Positions 2,483 through 42,955 of a stretch of 42,955 bases of DNA are shown here, in pieces (position 1 is the first letter of the stretch; every line of letters begins with the position of its first letter). The DNA lies in assembly GCA_001778635.1 (NCBI GenBank), contig MFHO01000004.1, positions 11,415 through 54,369 of the forward strand, written 5' to 3'. The notes under the pieces were generated by a model. It was not told the origin of the DNA and searched no databases. It was given only the letters and a program-made list of their open reading frames with translations. The position numbers and the translations under genes are program-made. Source of the DNA: Candidatus Giovannonibacteria bacterium RIFCSPHIGHO2_02_FULL_45_13. GTDB lineage: Bacteria; Patescibacteriota; Minisyncoccia; UBA11713; 2-01-FULL-45-33.

Positions 2483-2571
2483 TTATTTTCCCTTTAAAAA
2501 CCCGAGCATTTTTTCCAGAGGCCAGGCGTTGATGATGTCATTTTTTCCGCCCAGCCGCGGCATGCTTGAAA
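2483..2571 (-). pseudogene. Relic of a PolX 3' end (last ~29 codons incl. stop, frameshifted)
   Basis: Minus-strand translation gives QACRGWAEK, then a 1-nt frameshift in an A6 run, then NDIINAWPLEKMLGFLKGK*. The real PolX C-terminus is QARRGWATKADIINAWPLEKMLGFLKKGGR*. Nt 2496-2539 match 3667-3710 at 41 of 44 positions. A TAG sits upstream at 2572-2574. Confidence 0.8.
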
Positions 2572-2607
2572 CTAGAAAGCTTGCTCATTTTGTGCTAAAT
2601 TTCTGTT

Positions 2608-3645
2608 ATGTCAGAAAGTTTTTATCAGACAGCAGATAAGATAACCCCCGAAACCACGGAAAACAAACAGGCAGCCGAGCAGAAAAGAATCTTGAATCAG
2701 TTAGTTGAAGACGAAATCAATGAATGGAAAAAGGGATGTTTAACGCCGGAACCGCCGCCCGAATTGTTAGGTCATTTTCTGCAAATACAAGCAAGAATTA
2801 AAGCAAGTTGGTTTTACTCAGAAATCGATGATCCATTTTACGCCTGGCACACTACTGCGTATAATTTTTTCTTCGATCGATTTAAATTATCTTCAAAATC
2901 AGTTGCAGAAATTGAGAAAAGCGGCCAAGAAGCCGATAAAGTATTGCGGAATTTGAATAGAGAGAAATCTATTTTAGAACTTATGGAAGCCCTAAATCCG
3001 CTACCCTTAAATTGTTTTATAAATCACGAGAGGTTATATGGAAAACTGCGAGAATCCGTAGACATCCCAGGCGATAATAATGCCGTTGTATCTTTGTCAG
3101 TAGAAAGAATGCCTGGTTCGGAAAAAAATCCAAACCTGCCCGATTACGCTATGCAGATTAAGATAATGGATAGTGATGGTGCGCTTCTGCACGATTTCGG
3201 CCGAGACGTTAAGCCGGGCACCTTGTTTTTGGCGTGGCACAGAGACCAAGCTGACATCCAACAAAAATATATTCATGTTGGCGTATTCCAAAAACAGGGT
3301 TATTATAACAAGGGTAATTTTCAAGAACGACTTTCGGACGAAGCAATTTTCGCTCTTTGTCACGAAATAGGACACAATCAACAATTTAGCGACCAAGCCT
3401 TTATTGAAAAAGCCAAGAAAGTTGAAGGTGAAAATTGGATGCCGGATTATTCTCCTTTGGCAGAACGGGATGCGTGGGTAAGGGGTATTAAATTACTTAG
3501 ATCTATCCGCACCAGAGAGGGAAACAGAGTATTCACAACAAAGATCAATAAAAAAATAAAAGAAACGATCACTGCTTGTCTTAGCACCAGAGACGACGAA
3601 ACATTCAAAAAGGGTTATAAAAAAGGCAAAACGCCCATTAAATAA
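2608..3645 (+). CDS. hypothetical protein with HExxH zincin-type motif (345 aa)
   Basis: Long ORF with motif FALCHEIGHNQQF and a downstream acidic candidate ligand (PLAERDAW). No family recognised. Its stop lies 2 nt from the convergent polX stop. Confidence 0.6.
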   Translation: MSESFYQTADKITPETTENKQAAEQKRILNQLVEDEINEWKKGCLTPEPPPELLGHFLQIQARIKASWFYSEIDDPFYAWHTTAYNFFFDRFKLSSKSVAEIEKSGQEADKVLRNLNREKSILELMEALNPLPLNCFINHERLYGKLRESVDIPGDNNAVVSLSVERMPGSEKNPNLPDYAMQIKIMDSDGALLHDFGRDVKPGTLFLAWHRDQADIQQKYIHVGVFQKQGYYNKGNFQERLSDEAIFALCHEIGHNQQFSDQAFIEKAKKVEGENWMPDYSPLAERDAWVRGIKLLRSIRTREGNRVFTTKINKKIKETITACLSTRDDETFKKGYKKGKTPIK

Positions 3646-3647
3646 AT

Positions 3648-5384
3648 CTAACGACCCCCTTTCTTCAAAAACCCTAGCATTTTTTCCAGAGGCCAGGCGT
3701 TAATTATGTCTGCTTTAGTTGCCCATCCTCTTCTGGCTTGGGAGATGCCGATTTCAAGAAATTTAAAATGCGAGGCGGAGTGAGCATCGGAATCAATGGA
3801 CATTTTTACTCCTGCTTCAACGCACTTGCGAATATATTCGTCTTTTATATCTAATCGGTCAGGATACGCATCAATCTCTAAGACCGTGCCCGTGCGCTTG
3901 GCGGTTTGGATTATTTCATCAATATCAATTTCAATTGGCTCACGCCTATTTATAATCCGGCCGGTCAGATGGAAAATAATGTCCACGTTCGGGTTTTCCA
4001 TCGCTTTTATAATCCTCCTTGTTTGCTCCGTCCGCGATAATTTAAAATGGCTGTGCACGGCGGCTCCAACAACATCCAACTTTTTTAAAACTTCATTTTT
4101 GATGTCCAGCGAACCATCCTTGCCGATGTTCACTTCCGCGCCCTTTAAAACACGAATCTTGAAACCTGAAGCGTGAAGCTTTTTATTAATTTTATCAATT
4201 TCGGCCATCTGCTTCAGCAGTTTTTTTTCATCCGATCCGCCGGTCATAGCCAAAGATTTCGTGTGGTCGGTTATCGCGATATATTCCAATCCCGCTTCAT
4301 GCGCGGCTTTGGTCATTGCCTCAATAGAATCTTCCCCATCTGTCCAATTTGTTTGTGTTTGCAAATCACCTTTTAAATCTCCGTAGCCAATTAATTTCGG
4401 AAGCTTGCGAGTTTTGGCTAATTCCAGCTCGCCTGTATTTTCTCTCATCTCCGGTTCAATGTAATTAAGACCCAGCGCTTTATAAATTTCCTCCTCGGTG
4501 CGGCCAGCGACTTTCTTTTTTCTGCGAAATAGCCCATATTCATTCAACTTCCATCCTTTCTTGATCGCCATCTCGCGAAGCGCTATATTGTGATCTTTTG
4601 AACCGGTAAAATAATTAAGCGCGGCGCCATACGATTCTTTGGGCACAACGCGCAGGTCAGCGTCCAAACCATTCTTGAGTTTCACCATTGTTTTTGTTCC
4701 CCCTTTTGCGTAGACGTGCGCAATGAATGGCAAATCCACGAACCTATCCATTACTTTCTTCGGCGTCTTCGAGGTTGCCAAAATATCAATATCGCCGATG
4801 GTTTCTTTGCGTCGGCGCGTTGAGCCAGCAACTATGGCTTCCTTAACTTCAGGAAAGGCGCGGATCATTTTCTCCAAATTCCTGATTTCCGGCAAAATAA
4901 ATCCCAAAACCTGTCGGCCGCCCGATTTTTTCAAAAATTCAATCCCGCGCAAAATTTTATCTTCGGATTTTTGCCCAAACCTAGGTAATTTTCTAATTTT
5001 TTCCAACAGCGCTGCTTTTTCCAAATCTTTTAGGTTTTTTATTTTTAGTTTTTTATATAAAATTTTTATCATTTTCGGCCCCACGCCCTCTACCGCCGAA
5101 AGCTCCGAAATATTAACGGGAATTTTTCTCTTCAATTTTGCATATTCCGGAAAACGCCCCTTTTTTAAAAGAAGTTCGATGTGAAAAGCGATTCCTTTGC
5201 CCACCCCGGGAATTTTTAAAAGTTCTTTTGGGCCGTTCTCTTTATAAATATCTTTTACTTCCTTATTCAGCGCCTCAACTCCAAGCGCCGCCTTTTCATA
5301 GGCGCGCGGCTTGAACAAAACCCCCTCCATTTCATAAAGCTCCGCCATCTCCCGCAGGATTTTCGCAATTTCTTGATTAGACAT
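3648..5384 (-). CDS. polX: DNA polymerase X family protein with C-terminal PHP domain
   Basis: 578 aa. N-terminal Pol-beta-like HhH region (MSNQEIAKILREMAELYEMEG, GVGKGIA), nucleotidyltransferase motif GSTRRRKETIGDIDIL, and PHP-type motifs ITDHT, AVHSHF, DSDAHS. Confidence 0.92.
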   Translation of the reverse strand: MSNQEIAKILREMAELYEMEGVLFKPRAYEKAALGVEALNKEVKDIYKENGPKELLKIPGVGKGIAFHIELLLKKGRFPEYAKLKRKIPVNISELSAVEGVGPKMIKILYKKLKIKNLKDLEKAALLEKIRKLPRFGQKSEDKILRGIEFLKKSGGRQVLGFILPEIRNLEKMIRAFPEVKEAIVAGSTRRRKETIGDIDILATSKTPKKVMDRFVDLPFIAHVYAKGGTKTMVKLKNGLDADLRVVPKESYGAALNYFTGSKDHNIALREMAIKKGWKLNEYGLFRRKKKVAGRTEEEIYKALGLNYIEPEMRENTGELELAKTRKLPKLIGYGDLKGDLQTQTNWTDGEDSIEAMTKAAHEAGLEYIAITDHTKSLAMTGGSDEKKLLKQMAEIDKINKKLHASGFKIRVLKGAEVNIGKDGSLDIKNEVLKKLDVVGAAVHSHFKLSRTEQTRRIIKAMENPNVDIIFHLTGRIINRREPIEIDIDEIIQTAKRTGTVLEIDAYPDRLDIKDEYIRKCVEAGVKMSIDSDAHSASHFKFLEIGISQARRGWATKADIINAWPLEKMLGFLKKGGR

Positions 5385-10477: not shown

Positions 10478-10516
10478 CTTGTCAATAGTGACAATTTTGA
10501 GTTGAAAAGTTAAGAT
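10478..10516 (+). promoter_or_regulatory. promoter with palindromic box upstream of hicB
   Basis: cTTGTCAATAGTGACA (palindrome TTGTCA-ATAG-TGACAA). TGACAA serves as -35, then a 16-nt spacer, then TAAGAT as -10, ending 6 nt before ATG 10523, which may give a leaderless mRNA. The identical 16-mer recurs at 11363-11378. Confidence 0.45.
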
Positions 10517-11362: not shown

Positions 11363-11402
11363 CTTGTCAATAGTGACAGTTGTGGGGCGGATAATTTAAG
11401 AT
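11363..11402 (+). promoter_or_regulatory. promoter with the same palindromic box upstream of the DUF4258 gene
   Basis: cTTGTCAATAGTGACA is identical to 10478-10493. TGACAG as -35, a 17-nt spacer, then TAAGAT (11397-11402), 12 nt before ATG 11415. Confidence 0.45.
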
Positions 11403-17440: not shown

Positions 17441-18715
17441 ATGTTAGACCTAAAAAATTTCAATACGGCTTTGGAACAGCTTACGGCAGAAAAAGGCATT
17501 TCCAAGGAAAAGATTATGGAGGCGATTGATATGGCTTTGGCCGCGGCTTATAAGCGCGATTACGGAAAAAAAACGCAGGTTGTGCGCGCAAAGTTTGATC
17601 TGGCTACAGGCAAGGCGGAGTTTTGGCAGGTTAAAACCGTTGTGGACGAAACAATGATCAAGTCCGAGGAAGAAATTGCGGCGGAAGAAGCGGCAAAAGC
17701 AGCCGGAGGTTTTGATGCGCTAAGCGAGAAGCAAGAGGCTCGTGAGGCCGCCAGAGAAGCTTTGGGCGGCGAAACAGAAAGCTATGGCGAGGCTGGCGGC
17801 GAAACTGGCGAGATAAAAAAAGTCAGATTCAATCTGGATCGCCATATTATGCTGGATGAAGCTAAAAAAAATAAAAAGAGCGCCAAGCTTGGCGAAGAAT
17901 TAATTTTTCCTTTGGAGTCAAAAGAAGATTACGGGAGAATTGCCGCGCAAACTGCTAAGCAAGTGATTTTGCAAAGAGTCCGCGAAGCCGAGCGCGATTC
18001 CGTGTTTGATGAGTTTAAAGAAAAGGAAGGAGAAGTCGTTTCCGGCATAGTGCAGCGCATAGAGGGGCGTGCCGTTTTTCTGGATTTGGGAAGAACTATC
18101 GGTATCTTGCCGCCGGATGAACAAATAAGGGGCGAGCGATATCGCGTTGGAGAGAGAATTAAGACGCTGCTTTTGTCTGTTGAGAAATTGCCAAGAGGCC
18201 CGGGCATTTATCTTTCGAGATCGCATCCGCGGCTTGTTTTGAAGCTTTTTGAAATCGAGGTGCCGGAGATAGCTTCGGGGGTTGTTGAGATTAAGAACGT
18301 CGCGCGAGAGGCCGGAGCGCGCACAAAGATTGCGGTTGTTTCAAAAGAAGAGGGGATTGACCCGGTTGGATCCTGTGTTGGGCAAAGGGGCGTGCGCGTG
18401 ACCACGGTGATCGCCGAACTCGGAGGAGAAAAAGTAGATATCGTCCCTTGGTCGGAAGACAAAGAAAAATTCATAGCTAGCGCTGTTTCGCCCGCGAAAG
18501 TTTTGGAGGTGGACGTGGACGAGGCGAGAAAACACGCCAAGGTTACTGTTTCAGAAGATCAATTGTCTCTGGCGATCGGCAAAGGCGGGCAAAACGTGCG
18601 GCTGGCAGCAAAACTCACAGGCTATAAAATCGACATCCGTTCCCGCTCCGGCGAAACCGTTGCCGAAGCCACCTCCGAAGGCGAAGTGGTAGGCGAAGGG
18701 ATCGCGGGGGAGTAA
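17441..18715 (+). CDS. nusA: Transcription termination/antitermination factor NusA
   Basis: 424 aa with an N-terminal domain, S1 (GEVVSGIVQRIEGRAVFLDLG) and two KH domains (GACVGQRG-like VGSCVGQRGVR, AIGKGGQNVRLA). Contains an acidic insertion of roughly 60 aa after the NTD. Confidence 0.95.
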   Translation: MLDLKNFNTALEQLTAEKGISKEKIMEAIDMALAAAYKRDYGKKTQVVRAKFDLATGKAEFWQVKTVVDETMIKSEEEIAAEEAAKAAGGFDALSEKQEAREAAREALGGETESYGEAGGETGEIKKVRFNLDRHIMLDEAKKNKKSAKLGEELIFPLESKEDYGRIAAQTAKQVILQRVREAERDSVFDEFKEKEGEVVSGIVQRIEGRAVFLDLGRTIGILPPDEQIRGERYRVGERIKTLLLSVEKLPRGPGIYLSRSHPRLVLKLFEIEVPEIASGVVEIKNVAREAGARTKIAVVSKEEGIDPVGSCVGQRGVRVTTVIAELGGEKVDIVPWSEDKEKFIASAVSPAKVLEVDVDEARKHAKVTVSEDQLSLAIGKGGQNVRLAAKLTGYKIDIRSRSGETVAEATSEGEVVGEGIAGE

Positions 18716-18752
18716 ACTTGCCACAAAGCAGGATTTGTGATAAATTTGCTTT

Positions 18753-19160
18753 ATGGCTAACCAAACTATTACTGGCCCAATAATTTCTTTATCGGAGGTG
18801 ATAAAATCTCGGGAGCCCAAATCTTTAACGGAACAAAGGCTGATTTCGCTCTTAACTAAAAGATTTGGTGATTTACAAATAATCTGGAATCCAAAAGCAT
18901 TTCGGGAAGGACTGAACAATCCAGAACTCCCTAGTAATATTCTTAAAAAACTGGATTCGTTGCTTTTGCTTGCTGAGACAATAGATTGGAAAATTTCAAA
19001 GCCGTTAAAAGACGAACTGGATTCTACAGTTGAAGATATAGAAACTTTCAATCCCTCATTTAGAATGCGCCTTAAAAAAGCTTCTGAAGAATTTAGAGCC
19101 GGTAAATTTATTGCCTTGGAGGCGTTGGAGAAAAAGTTCGGACTTACTAAAAAACATTGA
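18753..19160 (+). CDS. hypothetical protein, putative antitoxin partner of RelE
   Basis: 135-aa ORF directly upstream of the RelE/ParE gene, 5 nt apart. No family recognised. Confidence 0.45.
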   Translation: MANQTITGPIISLSEVIKSREPKSLTEQRLISLLTKRFGDLQIIWNPKAFREGLNNPELPSNILKKLDSLLLLAETIDWKISKPLKDELDSTVEDIETFNPSFRMRLKKASEEFRAGKFIALEALEKKFGLTKKH

Positions 19161-19164
19161 CTTT

Positions 19165-19416
19165 ATGAATGTCGCTCTTTCTCCGCAAGCCAGCGATTTT
19201 TTGAAGAAGTGCCCAATCAATTTACGAAAAAGAATTCTCAACAAAATAAAATTCTATGCTTCCGCTCCAGATCCGTTAGAATTTGCCGAACATCTCACTG
19301 ATGACTCGGAGGCGCCTTATCGTTATAGAATTGGCGATTGGCGGGTTAAGTTTGCGGTAGAAAACAACACAATTACAGTTAAACGAATTGGCCGCCGCGA
19401 CAAAATTTATGAATAG
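19165..19416 (+). CDS. relE: RelE/ParE-family toxin
   Basis: From the internal ATG at 19165: MNVALSPQASDFLKK...PYRYRIGDWRVKFAVENNTITVKRIGRRDKIY, the classic RelE/ParE C-terminal pattern. Confidence 0.8.
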   Translation: MNVALSPQASDFLKKCPINLRKRILNKIKFYASAPDPLEFAEHLTDDSEAPYRYRIGDWRVKFAVENNTITVKRIGRRDKIYE

Positions 19417-19440
19417 CGATATGGAGGTCAACACTTTGTT

Positions 19441-19483
19441 CTCCGAAGGCGAAGTGGTGGGCGAAGGGATTGTGGCGGAGTAG
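19441..19483 (+). pseudogene. Relic copy of the nusA 3' end (last 13 codons + stop)
   Basis: The 43 nt match nusA 18673-18715 at 38 of 43 positions. It encodes SEGEVVGEGIVAE*, versus SEGEVVGEGIAGE* in nusA. Confidence 0.8.
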
Positions 19484-23319: not shown

Positions 23320-23380
23320 ATACCTCCTGTGTGTTTTCTAAAAACATAATAGCACACAGGGTGCTATTATGTCAAGCGTG

Positions 23381-23452
23381 GGAGGCATAGGGGATTCGAA
23401 CCCCTACCGACAGTGCCACAGACTATCGTGCTGCCATTACACCAATGCCTCC
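23381..23452 (-). tRNA. tRNA-His (GUG) with encoded G-1
   Basis: Reverse complement G-GAGGCAU-UG-GUGUAAUGGCAGCAC-G-AUAGU-CUGUGGC-ACUGU-CGGU-AGGGG-UUCGAAU-CCCCU-AUGCCUC-C. Cloverleaf with a G-1:C73 pair and anticodon GUG. Confidence 0.93.
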
Positions 23453-23937
23453 GTAAATTTTTCTCGTTCTTCCTTATAATGATGCACAAGGACATGACAA
23501 TTATTGCAGAGCCAGGCAAGATTGTCTAATTTATTATTTTTCCTATCTTTATCTATATGATGCACAGCCAATACTCTAACATCTTTTATTTTACACAAGA
23601 CACATACTGGTTTAACTTTGCTTTTTAAAATATTTTTCCGATATGTGTATTCGCCGTGTTTCCAATTCGGATGTCTCTCGCCTATGTACTCGATAGAATT
23701 TCTCCAAATAGCCTGACAGGATTTCCCGCAAAAATATTTTTTACTTTTAGAATGCTTTAAAGCCTTTAGCTGTTTATAAACATTTTCCCCGCAAATAAAA
23801 CAGGAAATAATTTTGCCGGTCTTAAAGGCCTCGTCTCTACACTTGCGCGAACAATATTTTCCTCCTCCGACTTTCACCCAATATGGCTTTATCGTAAATT
23901 TTTTACTGCAATTTAAGCAGGTTTTTATCAGGGGCAT
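23437..23937 (-). CDS. HNH endonuclease with N-terminal zinc-ribbon repeats
   Basis: VLAVHHIDKDRKNNKLDNLAWLCNNCHVLVHH (HNH motif) plus several CxxC pairs. Its last 16 nt (TEALV*) overlap the 5' end of tRNA-His. Confidence 0.85.
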   Translation of the reverse strand: MPLIKTCLNCSKKFTIKPYWVKVGGGKYCSRKCRDEAFKTGKIISCFICGENVYKQLKALKHSKSKKYFCGKSCQAIWRNSIEYIGERHPNWKHGEYTYRKNILKSKVKPVCVLCKIKDVRVLAVHHIDKDRKNNKLDNLAWLCNNCHVLVHHYKEEREKFTEALV

Positions 23938-23997
23938 ACTTGTAGTAAATGTATACCTCCAAATTAAATAAGTAAATGCTACGGTTTCTGAAACTTA

Positions 23998-24036
23998 TCC
24001 ACAGAGCAGCGCTTTGGCCGTTAAGCTATAGGCACC
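23998..24036 (-). pseudogene. tRNA-His 5'-half relic (G-1 to position 38)
   Basis: G-GUGCCUA-UA-GCUU-AACGGCCA-AAGC-G-CUGCU-CUGUGGA gives a good acceptor strand, D-arm and GUG anticodon loop. No complementary anticodon-stem strand, T-arm or 3' acceptor strand follows. Confidence 0.6.
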
Positions 24037-24052
24037 ATATTTGCCGATTGAT

Positions 24053-24613
24053 TCATAATCCAACCGGCATTTTTGTTTTTAAAATTTTTGCGTTGTGCTG
24101 CGCAATTTCAATAATTCTTTCTTTATAGGCCCGCGGATTCTCCGCAGGGTCTGGTATGTCGCCGACCAGCAAATCAGCCTTGGAGCTTTCTGGATCTTCC
24201 AAGGTCTTTGGGTGTTTGGAATAATCGAGTTTCGCAATTCTAAAACTATCAGAATTTCTTTCTTTCAACAAAGTTATTAAATCTGCGTGGCAAACAAAGT
24301 CTGCGATTGAATCTATCGTCGTCAGCACTTCCAAGCGTTCCAGCTCCTCTTTGCTTTTCAAATCTAAAAATGCAGCGGTTTCAAAAAGCAAATCTTTCAT
24401 CACCAGCTTTTTGGGATTTTTTGGATCGGACGGCTGGCGTTTTCGGATAAGCCGGATTGCGCAAATCTCTCGCGCTTGGGGATCGGTAATTGCCAGGCAA
24501 TCTCTTGCCTCTTTTTGGTAATGCGGATCGCCGGTTCTGACTTTGCCGAATAAAAAGAATTCAGCAATACGTCCGGAGCTGTCTTCCAAGCCCCGCGGAA
24601 ATTCCTTTAGCAT
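24053..24613 (-). CDS. hypothetical protein (186 aa)
   Basis: ORF track entry, 5 nt downstream of the 24619 gene. No family recognised. Confidence 0.55.
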   Translation of the reverse strand: MLKEFPRGLEDSSGRIAEFFLFGKVRTGDPHYQKEARDCLAITDPQAREICAIRLIRKRQPSDPKNPKKLVMKDLLFETAAFLDLKSKEELERLEVLTTIDSIADFVCHADLITLLKERNSDSFRIAKLDYSKHPKTLEDPESSKADLLVGDIPDPAENPRAYKERIIEIAQHNAKILKTKMPVGL

Positions 24614-24618
24614 TGGTT

Positions 24619-24867
24619 CTACTCTACTTTATAAATTACAGCACCCTCTTTGGCTTTCTGCGATAATTTCACCGCAACCTCGTCGCCCTTTTTGGCGGAG
24701 GAGACCTCTTTGTGGTCTACCTGCATTGAGGAAATGGTTTCCTCAAATTCCTCCTCGCCTTTTTTGACTTTCACACGATCTCCCGCTTTTAGCGTCGCGC
24801 TCAAGTCCAGCACAGCAACCCCGATTTTATCGTACCAATGTGTAATTTTTCCGACCTCTTTTTCCAT
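24619..24867 (-). CDS. small EF-Tu domain-2-like beta-barrel protein
   Basis: GKITHWYDKIGVAVLDLSATLKAGDRVKV...VSSAKKGDEVAVKL resembles the translation-factor domain II barrel. Confidence 0.5.
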   Translation of the reverse strand: MEKEVGKITHWYDKIGVAVLDLSATLKAGDRVKVKKGEEEFEETISSMQVDHKEVSSAKKGDEVAVKLSQKAKEGAVIYKVE

Positions 24868-24915
24868 AAATAAACTCTAGCATAAAACGCAATTTTTTGC
24901 TAATATGACTTAAAT

Positions 24916-24990
24916 GCCGCGGTAGCTCAGTGGCAGAGCGCTACCCTGAAGAGGTAGGCGTCGGGTGTTCGATTCACCCCCGCGGCACCA
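24916..24990 (+). tRNA. tRNA-Phe (GAA), CCA encoded
   Basis: GCCGCGG-UA-GCUC-AGUGGCA-GAGC-G-CUACC-CUGAAGA-GGUAG-GCGUC-GGGUG-UUCGAUU-CACCC-CCGCGGC-A-CCA. Confidence 0.95.
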
Positions 24991-25013
24991 GAAACGCAAA
25001 ATCCACACTTTGA

Positions 25014-25085
25014 CGCCCTCGAGAGGAATCGAACCTCTATCACAAGCTCCGCAAGCTTGCATCCTGTCCGTTGAACGACGAGGGC
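25014..25085 (-). tRNA. tRNA-Arg (GCG)
   Basis: Reverse complement GCCCUCG...CAAGC-UUGCGGA-GCUUG-UGAU-AGAGG-UUCGAUU-CCUCU-CGAGGGC-G. Anticodon GCG. The D-stem has two G-U pairs. Confidence 0.88.
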
Positions 25086-25097
25086 AATTTGCTTTTT

Positions 25098-25583
25098 TTA
25101 AAATCTAGCAAGGTGCGACAAATTGTCAATCAAGGATTCTTCCTGCTCAATTTCCGGAAGGAATTTTATGACGATTTCGCGGACTTTGTCGGGCTCTGTT
25201 TGCCCAAGCGGTATTTTAATGAACGGCACAAGCGCCTTTTTGGATTCCAATGACAAATCTTTATGAAGCGGCGGGTTGTAAAAAATCCAAAACGATTTAA
25301 GAGACTGCCATGAATAAAGAGTGCGTTCCACCAAAACGCCGCGCTCGGTTAGCGAAAATTTTAGCGTGCGCGGTGGGCGTACGGCGTAGAGCACGACCGT
25401 AAACCATCCGACCAAAACCAAAACGCCAAAAAGGAAAGATTTTTGATAGATAGCGAATCCTAATAAAATTATTGCGGCGAGCCCGGTCCACCAATACCAA
25501 TCTGTTCCTTTTTCATGATGAAAATACTCATGCGCCTCCCAGCTTAAAAATACTTTTCCAGCTTGGTCTTCCTTCGGATCCAT
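25098..25583 (-). CDS. hypothetical 2-TM membrane protein (161 aa)
   Basis: WYWWTGLAAIILLGFAIYQKSFLFGVLVLVGWFTVVLYAV followed by a soluble C-terminal domain. Confidence 0.55.
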   Translation of the reverse strand: MDPKEDQAGKVFLSWEAHEYFHHEKGTDWYWWTGLAAIILLGFAIYQKSFLFGVLVLVGWFTVVLYAVRPPRTLKFSLTERGVLVERTLYSWQSLKSFWIFYNPPLHKDLSLESKKALVPFIKIPLGQTEPDKVREIVIKFLPEIEQEESLIDNLSHLARF

Positions 25584-25612
25584 GGATATATTGTAGCAGA
25601 ATTCATCTTGTT

Positions 25613-25861
25613 GTGCTAAGTATTATATTATGGAGGTGTGATGGAGACTTGTATAAAGGATTGACTTCTGATTTAAAAAGAAGAATTGAGGAGCATAATA
25701 TCGGCAAAGCAGAATCAACTAAAAATTATAGACCAGTTGTATTGATTGGCTACGAAGCATACTTGCGCAAATAAGATGCACAAAGAAGAGAAAAATTTTT
25801 GAAAACAACTGAAGGTAGACGTTTGTTAAAACAGCAATATCGAGACATTTTGAATCAATAA
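25613..25861 (+). pseudogene. GIY-YIG nuclease-family gene interrupted by an in-frame TAA
   Basis: (GTG)LSIILWRCDGDLYKGLTSDLKRRIEEHNIGKAESTKNYRPVVLIGYEAYLRK, then TAA at 25772-25774, then DAQRREKFLKTTEGRRLLKQQ. Both halves together match the UPF0213/GIY-YIG layout. Confidence 0.7.
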
Positions 25862-25884
25862 TATTGAAATTTTGTTGGAAGGGC

Positions 25885-25972
25885 GGAGGTGTGGCTGAGC
25901 GGTCTAAAGCAGCGCACTGCTAATGCGTTGACCCTCAAAAGGGGTCCGGAGGTTCGAATCCTCCCACCTCCG
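25885..25972 (+). tRNA. tRNA-Ser (GCU), class II
   Basis: GGAGGUG...GCGCA-CUGCUAA-UGCGU, long variable arm GACCCUCAAAAGGGGUC, T-arm GGAGG-UUCGAAU-CCUCC, then CACCUCC-G. Confidence 0.93.
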
Positions 25973-26104
25973 CCCTTCCTGTAAAATCCGTGGTTCGCCA
26001 GGTCATCCGACCTGGCGCCCAGTCGAATGATTGGGCGAATCCTCTCGCCTCTGCCAGTTAAATTGCTATGGAAAATTTTCAGAAAAAGCATTATACTGCT
26101 TGGT

Positions 26105-26377
26105 ATGGACGAAGATATAAAGGGACTTTTGAAGAAAAATTTGGAAGCAAGCGAAAAGGCGCTTGGCATTTTAAGAAAAATGCATCGGGCGATGGTCTGG
26201 GGCAGAGTTTTTATCTGGGCAAAGTGGGTTCTGGTTGCCGCGTTGCTGATTGTAGGATATGTTCAAATACAACCCTATTTAAACGACATTTCGTTGGCTT
26301 ATCAGGATTTATTGCCGGTGTTGGAAAATCTGCAAAAATTAAATAAATCCTTGCCGACTTTGCCGACATTAAGATAA
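26105..26377 (+). CDS. small membrane protein (90 aa from ATG 26105)
   Basis: MDEDIKGLLKKNLEA...VWGRVFIWAKWVLVAALLIVGYV. The upstream part of the ORF-track frame overlaps the tRNA flank. Confidence 0.45.
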   Translation: MDEDIKGLLKKNLEASEKALGILRKMHRAMVWGRVFIWAKWVLVAALLIVGYVQIQPYLNDISLAYQDLLPVLENLQKLNKSLPTLPTLR

Positions 26378-26417
26378 TCATAAAGTTGAACGCGCTGGTC
26401 TTGTCCTGCGGCATAGT

Positions 26418-26504
26418 GGAGGGTTGGCCGAGCGGTTTAAGGCGCTGGTCTTGAAAACCAGTTGGGGCGAAAGCTCCTCGCAGGTTCAAATCCTGCACCC
26501 TCCG
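26418..26504 (+). tRNA. tRNA-Ser (UGA), class II
   Basis: GGAGGGU-UG-GCCGAGCGGUUUAAGGC-G-CUGGU-CUUGAAA-ACCAG, a long variable arm, GCAGG-UUCAAAU-CCUGC, then ACCCUCC-G. Confidence 0.93.
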
Positions 26505-26508
26505 AAAT

Positions 26509-29804: not shown

Positions 29805-29818
29805 TTGTTTTACCTCTT

Positions 29819-29843
29819 CACTTAGACGTCCGACGTCTAAGTG
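29819..29843. repeat. REP-like palindrome, copy 1
   Basis: CACTTAGACGTC-C-GACGTCTAAGTG, with perfect 12-nt arms. Confidence 0.85.
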
Positions 29844-29860
29844 TGCTAGCATTAGCTATT

Positions 29861-30505
29861 ATGAGAAAGACCGTATTTGCAAACGGCGAATTTTATCACG
29901 TTTATAATCGTGGCACAGATAAGCGTATTGTGTTTGCTAATAATTATGACTTCCAACGTTTTCTGCAAAGCATGGAAGAGTTTAATTCTGTAGATCCAAT
30001 AGGCAGTATTTATCAAAATTCTTTTTGCGAACCCCAACTTAGACGTCCGACGTCTAAGTTGGTGAATATTGTGTGTTATTGTCTTAATCCGAATCATTAT
30101 CATATGATTCTTCAGCAACGCGTTAGCGGCGGGATAAGCGAGTTTATGAAAAGATTGGGCGGTGGATATACAAAACATTTTAATTTTAAACATAAAAGAA
30201 GCGGCGTACTTTTTCAGGGTAAATTTAAAGCCAATCACATTGATTCCAATGAGTATTTGCTGCACGCAAGCGCATACGTCAATTTAAATGGGTTGGCGCA
30301 CAAATTGAAAAACAATCAATTTTATTCTAGTTGGGAAGAGTTTGTAAACAAAAATTCTAAAGGTGCTTGTAAAAAAGATATAATTCTTGATCAGTTTAAA
30401 GATGTAAATGAATATAGAATGTTTGTGCAAGGCGCTCTCAAAAAGATTTTGGCTAGAAAGGAGTTATTGAAAGAAATGGAGGATTTGTTTGCTTTAGAAA
30501 ATTAA
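29861..30505 (+). CDS. REP-associated tyrosine transposase (RAYT / IS200-like Y1 HUH transposase)
   Basis: FYHVYNRG..., HUH motif NPNHYHMIL, and catalytic-Tyr region HASAYVNLNGLAHK. ATG at 29861 (the ORF track starts at GTG 29843). Confidence 0.8.
   Translation: MRKTVFANGEFYHVYNRGTDKRIVFANNYDFQRFLQSMEEFNSVDPIGSIYQNSFCEPQLRRPTSKLVNIVCYCLNPNHYHMILQQRVSGGISEFMKRLGGGYTKHFNFKHKRSGVLFQGKFKANHIDSNEYLLHASAYVNLNGLAHKLKNNQFYSSWEEFVNKNSKGACKKDIILDQFKDVNEYRMFVQGALKKILARKELLKEMEDLFALEN
30034..30062. repeat. REP-like palindrome, copy 2 (inside the RAYT coding sequence)
   Basis: CCAACTTAGACGTC-C-GACGTCTAAGTTGG with 14-nt arms. Translated in frame as PQLRRPTSKLV. Confidence 0.85.
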
Positions 30506-30508
30506 AAT

Positions 30509-30539
30509 CCCCACTTAGATGTCGGACGTCTAAGTGGGG
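30509..30539. repeat. REP-like palindrome, copy 3
   Basis: CCCCACTTAGATGTC-G-GACGTCTAAGTGGGG with 15-nt arms and one G-U. It starts 4 nt after the RAYT stop. Confidence 0.85.
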
Positions 30540-39333: not shown

Positions 39334-41817
39334 ATGGCTCAAAAAGACAGCGAAACTAACTCCCAAAAAGTGGGGGTAGGGGGGGCAATAGGAACTGTAT
39401 CTCCGCGAGAGATTGTTTTGGAGATGCAGGAGTCGTATTTGGATTACGCGATGTCGGTTATTGTCGCGCGCGCCCTGCCGGATGTCCGTGACGGTCTAAA
39501 GCCTGTGCACCGCAGGATTCTGTTTGCGATGAATGAGATGGGTCTTACGCATAGCGCCAAAACAAAAAAATCCGCAAATGTGGTCGGCGAGGTGCTTGGG
39601 AAATATCATCCGCACGGAGATACGGCGGTTTACGATTCTTTGGTAAGAATGGCCCAAGATTTTTCGCTGCGTTACCCGCTGATTGAAGGGCAAGGAAACT
39701 TTGGATCCATTGACGGAGATTCGGCTGCCGCAATGCGTTATACCGAGGCAAGAATGTCTGCGATTGCCTCCGAAATGTTAAAGGACATTGAAAAAGAAAC
39801 CGTTAATTTTGTTTCGAATTACGATAATACAAAAAAAGAACCCGTTGTTTTGCCTGCGGCAATGCCGCAGCTGCTCCTAAATGGTTCTATGGGTATCGCG
39901 GTTGGAATGGCGACTAACATCCCGCCGCATAATCTTACGGAAGTCACGGACGCGACTTTGCATTTGATGAACCATCCAAAGGCGACGGTGGAGGAGCTTA
40001 CAGAATTTGTAAAAGGCCCGGATTTCCCAACCGGCGGAATAATTTTTAATAAAAAAGAAATTTTACAGGCTTACGCAACAGGCCGCGGAGGCGTGGTGAA
40101 CAGAGGAGAGGCAGAAATTTTAGAACGGAAAAACGGAGAGTGGCAGATTGTCATCACGTCCATTCCTTATCTTGTGAATAAATCCGAGCTTATCGTAAAA
40201 ATGGCCGACTTGGTGCACTTAAAAAAATTGGAAGGGATAAGGGACATACGAGACGAGTCAGACAAAGAAGGGCTTCGCATCGCGATTGATTTGAAAAGGG
40301 ATTCTTATCCGCAGAAAGTTTTAAACAATCTTTATAAACACACGGATCTGGAGCGGACGTACCATTTTAACGTGATCGCGTTGGTTGACGGCGGACTGCA
40401 GCCGAAAACGCTTTCTTTAAAAAGCATTTTAGAAGAGTTCGTTAAACACCGGCGCATTATCGTGGAGCGAAGAGCGCGGTTTGATTTGGCGCGCGCCGAG
40501 GAGCGGGAGCACATTCTTCTGGGATTGAAAAAGGCTTTGGAACATATTGACGCGGTTATAAAGACAATAAAAAGCTCGGATGACAGAGAAGATGCCCATA
40601 AAAATTTGATCAAAAAGTTTGATTTGTCGGACAAACAGGCAGCGGCGATTTTAGAGATGCGCCTTCAGACTTTGGCAGGACTTGAGCGGCAAAAAATTGA
40701 AGATGAACTTAAGGAAAAACAAAAACTCATCAAAGAATTGAAAGTGCTGTTGGGCGATCCGAAAAAAATTGACGAAGTGATTAAAAACGAACTTTCCGAG
40801 ATAAAAAAGAAATACGGAGACGAAAGGAAAACTAAAGTTATTTCTGGCGCTGCCAAAATTATCTCGGCAGAGGACTTGGTTGCCGAGGAAGAAACTATTC
40901 TTATATTAACCCAAGGAGGATATGTAAAGCGCATAAAGCCTGATGAATACAGAGTGCAGAAGCGCGGCGGGAAGGGAGTGATCGGGGTTACGACCAAAGA
41001 TGAAGATTTTGCATATGAATTTATCGGAGGAAATACGCACGATGATTTGCTCTTTTTTACGAATTTAGGAAAAGTTTATCAGACAAAAATGTATGAAATT
41101 CCGGAGGGCACAAGGCAGGCGAAGGGCAAGGCGATTGCAAACTTTCTTTCCTTGGCTGTGGATGAAAAAGTGACTTCGGTATTGCCAGTGCCCAAAACAA
41201 AGAAAGGGCAGTCTAGTTACGTGATCCTGTCCACTCAAAAAGGAGTTACCAAAAAAGTAAATTCCAAAGATTTTGAGGACGTTAGGCATTCCGGAATCCG
41301 CGCTATTAATTTGCAAAAAGGTGACACCTTGCGTTTTGCCCGCGTGGTTATGTCGGGAGAAGAAATTGTGCTTTCATCAAAATTGGGGCAGGCCATTCGT
41401 TTTAAAGAAAAAGACATCCGAGCCATGGGCAGGACGGCGCAGGGCATTCGCGGGATGAGGCTTAAGAGTAAAGACGAACTGGTTGGAATGGATATACTCC
41501 CGCAATCTGCGAAAAAATTGGAAATTTTGTCGGTTTCGCAATTGGGTTACGGCAAGAAAACGCTGATTTCGCAATATCGTTTGCAAAAGCGCGGCGGCTC
41601 TGGAGTTAAAACCTGCAAGGTTACATCCAAGACCGGAAATTTGGTTTCCGTACAGGTTGTTAAAGACGATCAGGAAGAAATTATCGCAATTTCAAAAAAA
41701 GGCCAGGTCATCCGCGCGCCGCTTTCGCAAATCCCCTCGCTTTCCCGCGCCACCCAAGGCGTTAGGATAATGAAATTAAACTCCGGCGATTCCGTCGCCT
41801 CGGTGACGCTGCTGTAA
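39334..41817 (+). CDS. gyrA: DNA gyrase subunit A
   Basis: [31 protein letters not shown], active-site [10 protein letters not shown], and C-terminal beta-pinwheel repeats. Confidence 0.97.
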
Positions 41818-41828
41818 AAAAGAAAAAA

Positions 41829-41853
41829 GCCAAGAGTTATTGTTTCTTAGCTG
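41829..41853 (+). repeat. hairpin element gccaaga-N-gtttcttagctg (copy 2)
   Basis: GCCAAGAG-UUAUUG-UUUCUUAGC, 12 nt after the gyrA stop. Shares gccaaga and gtttcttagctg with 6657-6683. Confidence 0.5.
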
Positions 41854-41882
41854 ACATATTAAAAAAAGGAGATTTGAATACA

Positions 41883-41981
41883 ATGTACAGCGCAGTCATG
41901 AATAGTACAAAGGTCATCAATTTGTACCCAAGAGCAATGTTGAATATGCGGTACGGATGTGTTAGGCTTTGTTTATGCTAA
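41883..41981 (+). CDS. small ORF, 32 aa (below ORF-track cutoff)
   Basis: AGGAG lies 11 nt upstream of the ATG. MYSAVMNSTKVINLYPRAMLNMRYGCVRLCLC. Its stop overlaps the next ATG (ATGCTAA). Confidence 0.3.
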   Translation: MYSAVMNSTKVINLYPRAMLNMRYGCVRLCLC

Positions 41982-42166
41982 GCGATTCGCAATTGAAGTT
42001 TCTATCGGATGTGTCGTTGATGACAGGACAAGTTTGTTTGGCATCGTTAGTGATTCCATACTTTATTTCTCAATTCAATGCAAGCTTTTTATTGCTCGGT
42101 ATTATATTAACAGCAAGTTCTTGGTTAGTCGGCTTGCTTATTATCAGAAACGTTAAAAATATTTAA
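41975..42166 (+). CDS. small 2-TM membrane protein (63 aa)
   Basis: MLSDSQLKFLSDVSLMTGQVCLASLVIPYF...LLLGIILTASSWLVGLLII. Weakly similar to the 6786-6962 product. Confidence 0.45.
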   Translation: MLSDSQLKFLSDVSLMTGQVCLASLVIPYFISQFNASFLLLGIILTASSWLVGLLIIRNVKNI

Positions 42167-42171
42167 CTGCT

Positions 42172-42258
42172 ATGTACACATTTTATTTGATAGTTGCCAT
42201 AGCGCTGCTCGCAATTGCAATAGCGGCCTACCCGACTCTGCGTAGCCGCAACAAGTAG
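42172..42258 (+). CDS. small hydrophobic peptide, 28 aa (below ORF-track cutoff)
   Basis: MYTFYLIVAIALLAIAIAAYPTLRSRNK. Same position and character as the peptide at 6677-6766. Confidence 0.3.
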   Translation: MYTFYLIVAIALLAIAIAAYPTLRSRNK

Positions 42259-42262
42259 CCTC

Positions 42263-42286
42263 GTCGCCTCGGTAACGTTGCTGTAA
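42263..42286 (+). pseudogene. Relic copy of the gyrA 3' end (last 7 codons + stop)
   Basis: gtcgcctcggtaacgttgctgtaa matches gyrA 41794-41817 (gtcgcctcggtgacgctgctgtaa) at 22 of 24 positions. Both encode VASVTLL*. Confidence 0.7.
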
Positions 42287-42374
42287 TTTATAACGACATC
42301 GCAAGTCATTAATGATCCGCTTGGCTGTGGCAAGAAATATAAAAAGTGCCATGGGGCGTGAGCGACAGGCGATA

Positions 42375-42399
42375 AAAAAAGCCCGCAGTGGGGCTTTTT
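42375..42399. terminator. bidirectional terminator hairpin
   Basis: AAAAAGCCC-GCAGU-GGGGCUUUUU, overlapping the stop of the minus-strand gene. Confidence 0.6.
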
Positions 42400-42583
42400 A
42401 GTTTTCTTGATCCTGGACGCATTTGACTTTTACGTGCTTAGCTTCCGCGCTTTCAAAAACAAACTTTTTAGCTTCTTCGCACGATTTTTTGTTGCGAAAT
42501 TCTCGGAATGTTACGGAACTGACTCCTTCGGATCCGCCGATGCCGCTTGCGAACATAAGGCTCACCACAATTAAAACCCACAT
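42398..42583 (-). CDS. small secreted/membrane-anchored protein (61 aa from ATG 42583)
   Basis: AGGTG lies 5 nt upstream of ATG 42583. MWVLIVVSLMFASGIGG is signal-like. The longer ORF-track start would overlap nrdJ. Confidence 0.45.
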   Translation of the reverse strand: MWVLIVVSLMFASGIGGSEGVSSVTFREFRNKKSCEEAKKFVFESAEAKHVKVKCVQDQEN

Positions 42584-42624
42584 ATCCACACCTACTATCT
42601 CTCTTGGCATGATAATATAAAAAC

Positions 42625-42955
42625 ATGAGCGATGCAAAAAATATTATTTTGAAAGACGGAGCCCAAAGCGGGGCTTTTTTCACTTCGTCCTCCGAAGCCT
42701 TGGCGAAGGAGGATCGCCGAGGATTGCGAATGCAACGTTATTTCACCAAAGAAGGTGTCCATCCATATGATGAAATTGAGTGGGAGAAGCGTGTTGCCAA
42801 GATAACTTCCGCAAAGGGCGAAACGATTTTTGAACAAAAGGACGTTGAGGTGCCGAAATTTTGGTCGCAGACCGCAACAGATATTGTGGCAGAGAAATAT
42901 TTTAAAGGACATATTGGCAAGCCAGATAGAGAATGGTCCGCAAAACAGTTAGTTG
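42625..42955 (+). CDS. nrdJ: Ribonucleotide reductase, class II (adenosylcobalamin-dependent), N-terminal fragment
   Basis: Open from ATG 42625 to the window end. RYFTKEGVHPYDEIEWEKRVAKI...IFEQKDVEVPKFWSQTATDIVAEKYFKG is the typical NrdJ N-terminus. Confidence 0.8.
   Translation, partial: MSDAKNIILKDGAQSGAFFTSSSEALAKEDRRGLRMQRYFTKEGVHPYDEIEWEKRVAKITSAKGETIFEQKDVEVPKFWSQTATDIVAEKYFKGHIGKPDREWSAKQLV

Follow-up and report, generated by a model that had tools for sequence, protein, structure and literature searches.

Architecture of the gyrA locus

The DNA analyzed here is a stretch of 42,955 nucleotides (the window) from the genome of the groundwater bacterium Candidatus Giovannonibacteria bacterium RIFCSPHIGHO2_02_FULL_45_13, and its subject is the 3′ end of gyrA, behind which lies a small cassette followed by a second copy of the last gyrA codons. 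The gene is an intact 827-aa open reading frame (ORF) on the forward strand (39334–41817). Pfam families DNA_topoisoIV and DNA_gyraseA_C were matched on a protein identical to the GyrA of the window, and the C-terminus of GyrA, ...VASVTLL here, reads VASVTLL, VASVALL or VASITLL in all relatives, the closest of which are metagenome-assembled genomes of Candidatus Giovannonibacteria and other Parcubacteria of the Candidate Phyla Radiation (CPR). The last seven codons and the stop codon (GTCGCCTCGGTGACGCTGCTGTAA, 41794–41817) recur downstream as GTCGCCTCGGTAACGTTGCTGTAA (42263–42286). Our alignment agrees with the preliminary description of this repeat: the copies are identical at 22 of 24 positions (23 of 25 with one extra common base upstream, 41793–41817 versus 42262–42286), and the two mismatches, GTG/GTA and CTG/TTG, are both synonymous. 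The upstream copy (41793–41817, forward strand) provides the working last codons and stop of gyrA. The insert of 469 bp is placed within the last ∼9 codons of the gene, so that the downstream copy, here called the relic (42259–42286, forward strand), lies 469 bp further on as a non-coding ...VASVTLL* with its stop codon, its first 4 nt decayed.

The preliminary description had named assembly artefacts and a common repeat unrelated to gyrA as the threats to its reading. Chance similarity and mis-assembly are refuted, and we assign them practically no residual probability. Taken alone, the 25-mer reaches only E = 0.012 in a self-BLAST of the window, but the copy terminates exactly at the gyrA stop codon, the window contains two copies only (at up to three mismatches), and 100 shuffles gave no match. 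The exact window GyrA is found on 12 contigs, and the five listed, which come from separate ENA and JGI assemblies, are 100% identical over 41818–42955, so an assembly artefact at the junctions is excluded; the same contig is also present in NCBI assemblies GCA_001778465.1 and GCA_001780645.1. The structure is kept in two further lineages as well. When the last 75 nt of each gene were compared with the 9 kb downstream of it, polX scored 38, nusA 32 and gyrA 20, and no other gene, upstream control or reverse-strand control exceeded 16.

The comparison with relatives indicates which copy is the original. L007, which is 89% identical to the window over the GyrA C-terminus, has no insert, and its gyrA stop codon is followed by 54 nt and then by the start of nrdJ, so that gyrA runs straight into nrdJ; the preliminary description had suggested looking for insert-free relatives. 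Two other Giovannonibacteria lineages (L086/L095 and L096) display the same gyrA–cassette–relic architecture as the window. In L086 and L096 the relic comprises 29 nt (ACTCCGTCGCCTCGGTGACGTTGCTGTAA) and directly adjoins the stop of the last cassette ORF (28 aa), and the relic plus its downstream flank run collinear with L007, from the gyrA end through the intergenic region into nrdJ. Because L007 is insert-free and the relic flanks of L086 and L096 are collinear with it, the downstream copy is the displaced resident end of gyrA, and the end now in use was supplied by the insert. This comparison backs the earlier proposal of a gyrA relic displaced by a small cassette. The stop of the 28-aa ORF had also been placed 4 nt before the relic; that spacing is correct for the window, but these 4 nt are decayed relic sequence, as the direct junction in L086 and L096 indicates. 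Seven closer relatives showed no relic behind gyrA.

Between the relic and nrdJ lies a second insertion (42287–42624, reverse strand) with a terminator (42376–42399, terminator scan) and a small reverse-strand ORF (42398–42637) of 79 aa when read from TTG, or 70 aa in the JGI call, which starts at an inner ATG. Its product has a hydrophobic N-terminus and gave no family match. This segment is missing in L086, L096 and L007, in which the relic or gyrA end reaches nrdJ within ∼50–60 nt; it occupies the same gyrA–nrdJ hot spot and has no relic of its own. At 42625–42955 on the forward strand begins nrdJ, the class II ribonucleotide reductase gene that originally came next after gyrA, and it runs off the window; the full gene in L002 matches Pfam families Ribonuc_red_2_N, Ribonuc_red_lgC and TSCPD. 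In one assembly (L001, 13560–13917) nrdJ is broken into ORFs of 191 and 809 aa. A perfect 63-nt repeat is followed there by a 295-bp segment with which the gene begins anew from a divergent allele, and the right end of the window (42893–42955) coincides exactly with this repeat. The break is either a strain polymorphism or an assembly tangle.

Cargo of the gyrA cassette

The preliminary description had assigned three tiny ORFs to the insert. Two of them, of 63 and 28 aa, are conserved in 13 homologous loci and the 32-aa ORF is not. ORF2 (41975–42166, forward strand) is the conserved cargo gene and encodes a 63-aa two-helix membrane protein with homologues (P0002–P0007) at 44–92% identity. A profile search of 1.8 billion representative proteins (E ≤ 1e-3) retrieved 91 representative clusters, nearly all of 55–107 aa and mostly of 60–70 aa, with conserved residues G18, P28, G42 and W50. 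The small-ORF homology search proposed earlier was productive for ORF2. ORF3 (42172–42258, forward strand), a 28-aa hydrophobic peptide with a basic tail (...YPTLRSRNK), is the constant partner of ORF2 across the 13 loci. In 12 of these, ORF3 (28–32 aa) lies within a few bases 3′ of ORF2, and in L094 the two are fused; the conserved motif is FYL.IAI.LLAIAI..YPTLR. No Pfam family covers the domain of the ORF2 relatives, window ORF2 and ORF3 matched no Pfam, NCBIfam or PADLOC family, and ORF2 relatives were absent from the viral contigs, phage records and plasmid records searched.

The promoter of the cargo (41940–41968, forward strand; TTGAAT, 17 nt, TAGGCT) ends 6 nt before the ORF2 start codon and is located inside ORF1. 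The hexamers of the window are weak and were not flagged by a simple consensus scan; in most of the 13 loci the same position is taken by a sequence close to TTGACA-N17-TATAAT, ending ∼6–8 nt before the ATG. The conserved cargo unit consists of promoter, ORF2 and ORF3. ORF1 (41883–41981, forward strand; 32 aa) is doubtful as a gene. It does have the Shine-Dalgarno sequence noted earlier, but this sequence and the first 18 codons are common to L096 only, ORF1 is absent in L086, and the remaining C-terminal part, together with the ATGCTAA overlap with ORF2, was made by a 128-nt deletion in the lineage of the window relative to L096 and L086. The coupling of the 63-aa ORF to the 32-aa ORF that had been read from this overlap is a deletion product, and ORF2 has its own promoter. 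No family match was obtained for ORF1.

Just past the new gyrA stop lies a decayed hairpin (41829–41852, forward strand), which folds at −6.1 kcal/mol (z = +0.4) in the window; in L096 it is strong and terminator-like (−15.8 kcal/mol, z = −3.5). It had been described as shared with the 6.7-kb locus, but no second copy exists in the window at up to three mismatches. The left parts of the cassettes contain no conserved third gene: they are unrelated between contexts, and their ORFs have no family match. The idea that the left part is a decayed second copy of ORF2–ORF3 was rejected, as 8 of 500 shuffles reached its score and it is absent in L096. An Rfam search of 41500–42955 returned nothing at the gathering score, with two sub-threshold matches at 24 bits (cut-offs 47 and 55).

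ORF2 and ORF3 define an uncharacterized family, a pair of small membrane proteins equipped with a promoter of its own and similar in behavior to a selfish module. From their size, hydrophobicity and neighbors we infer that they may be toxin-like. A recognizable toxin family with an adjacent small partner, ParE_toxin, occurs at the related nusA and leuS loci described below, and none occurs among the gyrA cargo. One may speculate that the cargo types, small membrane peptides here and ParE toxin–antitoxin pairs at the sister loci, are all selfish, addiction-type genes.

Sister loci in the same genome

The preliminary description had presented the gyrA locus as the smallest case of a recurring arrangement of gene end, cassette and relic. 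This recurrence is borne out by polX and nusA in the window, by leuS just outside it and by gyrB in another lineage. At polX (3648–5384; Pfam DNA_pol_B_thumb, HHH_8 and PHP) the locus spans 2483–3710 on the reverse strand and contains a 48-nt repeat, 92% identical, with the working end at 3663–3710 and the relic at 2492–2539, the latter with its own stop (2483–2485) and a terminator. All four codon differences are synonymous, and the cargo is a 345-aa ORF (2608–3645, forward strand) that matches no Pfam family. At nusA (17441–18715) the locus spans 18673–19483 on the forward strand, and a 42-nt repeat, 90% identical, is formed by the working end (18673–18714) and a relic with its own stop (19441–19482). 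Here the cargo comprises a 135-aa putative antitoxin (18753–19160) and a ParE toxin (19165–19416); the Pfam matches at the locus are NusA and ParE_toxin, the latter being the only family match among the cargo proteins of the window. The nusA cassette with a nusA-end relic is also present in L103 (57 nt) and L105 (51 nt). Searches of solved structures with the 345-aa and 135-aa cargo proteins gave no significant match.

The leuS locus (L107, 1142–1941) belongs to the same genome and lies ∼8 kb to the left of the window start. Its 100-nt repeat is 82% identical, with the working end at 1142–1241 and the relic at 1842–1941, 700 bp downstream, and the copies differ by 11 synonymous and 5 conservative codon changes. 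The cargo, on the opposite strand, is a ParE toxin with a 74-aa partner. The relic stop lies 10 nt before the ATG of the next gene, with a Shine-Dalgarno sequence in between. Within ∼53 kb of one genome, the ends of leuS, polX, nusA and gyrA, which are unrelated in sequence, are occupied by three kinds of cargo; the pattern is independent of cargo and has many targets.

One other repeat in the window is of a different nature. A perfect 16-nt direct repeat (CTTGTCAATAGTGACA, containing a palindrome) stands at 10478–10493 and 11363–11378 before two neighboring small-gene cassettes, which carry HicA and DUF4258/DUF2283 annotations in the same contig elsewhere. It was rejected as a gene-end relic and would instead be a repeated promoter or operator, which the two tandem modules of toxin–antitoxin type appear to have in common.

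Working end and relic as two alleles

The differences between working end and relic bear on how the second copy arose. Eight such pairs together show 52 nucleotide differences, 35 of them at codon position 3; among the 44 codon differences, 31 (70%) are synonymous. Random mutation gave 21% synonymous changes in simulation, and none of 20000 runs reached the observed share. Simulated in-place duplication, modeled with a selected working copy and a neutral relic, gave 34%, and none of 5000 runs reached the observed value. The pairs also include serine AGC/TCG and TCC/AGT switches. The L086 relic is identical to the working gyrA end of L007 at 28 of 29 positions and to its own gyrA end at only 20 of 29. 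Because the differences are mainly synonymous, to a degree beyond both simulations, the two copies are two alleles and not the footprint of a transposase. Both evolved as coding ends in different lineages, and the insert arrives with a foreign copy of the gene end.

Duplication at the moment of insertion, whether by repair of staggered cuts, by target-site duplication of the transposase type or by end-joining capture, followed by drift, is the obvious alternative. It has a precedent in restriction–modification systems, for which long target duplications without mobility genes are documented, mostly in naturally competent bacteria, with repeats of ≥46 nt that sometimes overlap gene 3′ ends (PMC2853133), and the two L096 copies are nearly identical (26 of 27). 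The excess of synonymous changes over the 34% expected, the serine switches and the greater similarity of relics to the working alleles of other lineages than to their own gene all run counter to it, and neither a transposase nor inverted repeats are present. In-place duplication of any of these kinds is thus strongly disfavored, and we regard it as very improbable.

In L096 the working gyrA end (4691–4727) and the relic (5286–5322) both carry a lineage-specific ACA codon and the post-stop run AAAGAAAAAA. These common features suggest gene conversion between the two direct repeats within one genome. A diversity-generating retroelement, with template and variable repeat, was also considered for such repeat pairs and rejected, as the differences are not adenine-specific and the repeats are short.

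Mobility of the cassette

The ORF2–ORF3 module follows gyrA in three lineages and is also found at other genes. In L099 it lies after gyrB (identified by Pfam), and behind it stands a 75-nt relic that codes for the C-terminus of GyrB (...VEPRKLFIQTHAKAVKNLDI*); a gyrB-like relic is present in L101 too. In L090 the module is located among toxin–antitoxin genes, and a partial gyrA-like relic (TCGGTGACGTT...TGCTGT) still stands 3′ of ORF3. Between the three gyrA lineages, identity at codon position 3 is 0.68–0.83 for ORF2 and ORF3 and 0.51–0.61 for gyrA and nrdJ, whose silent sites are near saturation (fourfold-site identity 0.34–0.48). Between L086 and L096, promoter, ORF2, ORF3 and relic together form a block of 87–93% identity that stops at the relic end; the flanks reach 73–78% (last 330 nt of gyrA), 51% (left part of the cassette), 62% (DNA after the relic) and 69% (nrdJ). 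Since silent-site and block identities exceed those of gyrA, nrdJ and the flanks, cargo and relic have been exchanged more recently than the host genes diverged. The cassette is mobile, with an exchanged block that ends at the end of the relic.

An old, vertically inherited event, that is, a single ancient insertion or tandem duplication with no ongoing mobility, would explain why site and architecture agree among the three gyrA lineages and among the three nusA lineages. It would also be compatible with the nusA cassette, in which the cargo has a position-3 identity of 0.55–0.65, only modestly above the 0.44–0.47 of nusA itself. It does not fit the gyrA cassette, which together with its relic has changed far less than gyrA and nrdJ have at silent sites. 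At that depth, where fourfold-degenerate identity in gyrA is 0.39, one would no longer recognize a neutral relic, and the same module occurs at gyrB with a gyrB relic. Vertical inheritance alone is consequently judged improbable.

Two loci of relatives show unusual gene structures. In L106 (35–1173) an ORF2 relative forms the in-frame C-terminus of a glycosyltransferase of the WecG/TagA family (340 aa) and is followed by an ORF3 relative, which is either the module in the tail of another housekeeping gene or a true fusion. In L100 (1214–4498) the leucyl-tRNA synthetase contains inserted DUF559 (endonuclease-like) and NUDIX domains.

Proposed mechanism of insertion

In sum, the repeat is real, and its interpretation as relic and cassette is right at its core. 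As to how the arrangement arises, we think it reasonably probable that a cassette lacking an integrase and carrying a gene-end segment enters by recombination with the resident gene end. The cassette would travel with a short segment of a gene end taken from another lineage, and entry could occur by a single crossover of a circular form, between this segment and the resident end, or else by a double crossover in which the gene body serves as a long left arm and the relic as a short right arm. The inserted DNA supplies replacement last codons and a stop, leaving GyrA unchanged, and the resident gyrA end with its original downstream DNA stays behind as a non-coding relic. At least the 3′ part of the upstream gyrA copy would then have come with the cassette; over the final 30 nt of the gene the window agrees with L096 at 28/30 positions, against 79% in the 300 nt of gyrA before them. 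A sharp breakpoint of recombination between the window and L096 was not found within gyrA; identity rises only modestly, over these 30 nt and over the initial 122 nt of the cassette. The end of any essential, conserved gene may serve as a landing pad, the gene would never be damaged, and a cassette between direct repeats could be looped out and re-used.

Family searches detected no integrase or transposase in any insert, and there are no terminal inverted repeats at the insert ends. Competence genes in the window comprise a type IV pilus cluster and a ComFC-like protein, and Saccharibacteria have been shown to be naturally competent and to integrate DNA homologously (PMC10633639). Because the inserts have no recombinase, four unrelated targets are used, competence genes are present and the Saccharibacteria offer a precedent, host homologous recombination after natural DNA uptake is favored and is most probably the route.

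The main competitor is site-specific integration by a recombinase acting in trans. The cassette would then be a stripped remnant or satellite of a larger element that targets gene 3′ ends and bears a replacement end within its attP site, and the repeats would correspond to the attL and attR of cis-mobilizable elements (CIMEs). A conserved gene that has been restored and has direct repeats at its 3′ end is what such integration classically leaves behind (PMC5704250). In each cassette family the relic adjoins the cargo 3′ end at a fixed position, it is conserved between lineages and moves with the cargo block, and in L090 a partial gyrA-like site stays with the module outside the gyrA context. 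Mainly synonymous differences would also be expected of a replacement end borne by an element; phage 21 and e14 at icd, for example, carry such an end, which differs mainly at silent sites. What speaks against an enzyme of this kind is that no integrase, integrase fragment or transposase was detected in the inserts or in the window, in which a tyrosine recombinase was likewise not found and the only nuclease or recombinase candidates are one ORF weakly resembling a REP-associated tyrosine transposase (RAYT) and one HNH protein. The four target sequences of this small genome are unrelated, so that four specificities would be required, which argues against a single site-specific enzyme, and the repeats range in length from 24 to 100 nt. 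A larger relative with an integrase was not found at any of these sites, and a search for a mobilizing element with the same att site, which covered the window, the gyrA loci of ∼80 relatives, the 13 loci with the cassette and collections of viral, phage and plasmid sequences, was negative.

Several observations weigh against entry by homologous recombination. All five listed contigs contain the insert, so no empty-site variant was seen, and neither was a circular junction. The gyrA repeat of 24–29 nt, with a longest perfect run of 11–12 nt in the window, is short for a RecA-type exchange; the longest perfect blocks elsewhere are 27 nt (leuS), 26 nt (polX and gyrB) and 23 nt (L096). The model leaves unexplained how a new gene would first acquire the structure. 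The module also stands behind leuS (L100), a Mur ligase gene (L098), ruvB (L092) and a gene of the wecG type, where a relic could not be detected; in L100, L098 and L092 the DNA past the module was searched for a copy of the upstream gene's end, with a negative result. The relics are ∼90% conserved between lineages, above the expectation for neutral DNA, and could be recognition sites of a recombinase rather than passive homology. Finally, the pattern is frequent in this lineage and was not found in the gyrA neighborhoods of ∼80 relatives (866 genes scanned, with matches in L051 taken, unchecked, as tandem paralogues), a concentration that hints at a lineage-specific factor. Since relic conservation and lineage concentration would fit some recombinase, att-site integration of the CIME type is retained as an unlikely but serious alternative, and entry by homologous recombination remains the preferred reading.

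A few further features of the window touch on mobile DNA and small genes. The RAYT-like ORF (220 aa, 29843–30505) lies in the segment 29813–30538 and scores 29 bits in NCBIfam (cut-off 80), with a weak match to Pfam Y1_Tnp; three copies of a perfect palindrome of 25–33 nt (CACTTAGACGTCCGACGTCTAAGTG) are located at 29813–29845, at 30030–30062, inside this ORF, and at 30506–30538. Five tRNA genes (His, Phe, Arg, Ser and Ser) at 23380–26505 are interspersed with small ORFs, among them the HNH endonuclease ORF (23437–23937), whose 3′ end overlaps tRNA-His, and an 82-aa ORF (24619–24867) with weak matches to the beta-barrel domains of EF-Tu and IF2. A 15-nt inverted match of the relic flank at 24629–24643 lies in ordinary coding sequence and was dismissed as chance.

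Comparison with known systems

Insertion with long target duplication (Nobusato et al. 2000; Furuta, Abe and Kobayashi 2010, PMC2853133) is the closest known description of this arrangement. It was reported for restriction–modification systems, mostly of competent bacteria, its mechanism is unknown, and in the life cycle proposed for it the repeats serve to amplify and release the insert (PMC2853133). The likeness lies in accessory genes of a selfish type that lack a mobility gene of their own, in flanking direct repeats that are single-copy in an empty-site genome (here L007), and in repeat lengths of tens of bp that vary and sometimes overlap a gene 3′ end; inserts in those systems are <20 kb and those described here are 469–1171 bp. 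Relative to the 30-bp cut-off applied to the repeats in PMC2853133, the gyrA repeat of the window falls short at 24–25 nt, as does that of L086 and L096 at 29 nt (∼37 nt in L096 with the post-stop A-run), and the sister repeats exceed it (nusA 42–57, polX 48, gyrB 75 and leuS 100 nt). The cargo differs, consisting of membrane peptides, ParE pairs and a 345-aa protein instead of restriction–modification genes, and the repeats described here always cover the last codons of an essential gene. The two copies, moreover, are different alleles, and the repeat is not the target's own duplicate, which argues against target duplication and for an incoming copy.

Elements that integrate at gene 3′ ends, and CIMEs, which keep attL and attR after loss of the integrase (PMC5704250), resemble these loci in that the gene is intact, the displaced end stands as attR, the copies differ mainly at silent sites and an integrase is lacking. 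Unlike CIMEs, the inserts (469–1171 bp) carry one or two conserved genes each, no related integrase-bearing element is known for these sites, and several unrelated targets are used in one genome. In the displaced orphan C-terminal modules of Rhs and contact-dependent growth inhibition (CDI) systems, homologous recombination exchanges the 3′ end for a newly arrived one that brings a further gene with it, and the former end persists directly behind them. These toxin–immunity modules share with the gyrA cassette an incoming 3′ end plus gene and a displaced old end. There, however, the new end is a different toxin domain and the homology lies upstream; here the same amino acids are restored and the targets are housekeeping genes.

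Integron cassettes are similarly small and integrase-less, with one or two genes, often of the toxin–antitoxin type, and a 3′ recombination site. In contrast to these, the cassettes described here have no integron integrase, attI or attC-like fold, they have their own promoter, and their 3′ site copies the end of a host gene; the relic region folds no better than shuffled sequence in three lineages (z = +0.4, −0.2 and −1.2). DNA transposons and insertion sequences differ by a transposase in the insert and inverted repeats at its ends, both of which are lacking here. A 2025 study of gene exchange in groundwater Patescibacteria (PMC12455944), in which the words integrase, direct repeat and hotspot do not occur, appears not to describe the pattern. 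What sets the present case apart is the cargo, the consistent use of the last codons of essential genes, multiple targets in a single small genome, the CPR host and the evidence that the two copies are alleles.

Significance

The genomes of CPR bacteria (Patescibacteria) are tiny and have few recognizable mobile elements, yet they differ in their accessory genes, and to our knowledge little has been established about how these genes move. The gyrA locus and its sister loci at gyrB, nusA, polX and leuS point to a repeatable, enzyme-less way of placing accessory genes in the tails of essential genes, which stay undamaged. A mobile cassette that carries a homology arm and has no enzyme of its own is plausible but unproven. 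The silent-site signature provides a handle on the old question of the mechanism of long target duplication, since it suggests that the extra copy enters with the insert and is not copied from the target.

In its broadest form, which we put forward tentatively and consider possible rather than probable, the proposal is that these cassettes constitute a distinct mobile class. Captured codons of an essential gene would serve as a portable homology arm, host recombination after DNA uptake would knock the cassette into the same gene of related cells with no harm to the gene, and the relic would be the right arm, renewed from the host at each transfer. Such cassettes might then be a main exchange route for addiction-type and accessory genes in CPR bacteria. 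The proposal can be tested in naturally transformable Saccharibacteria, and the arrangement also suggests a natural design for knock-in constructs.

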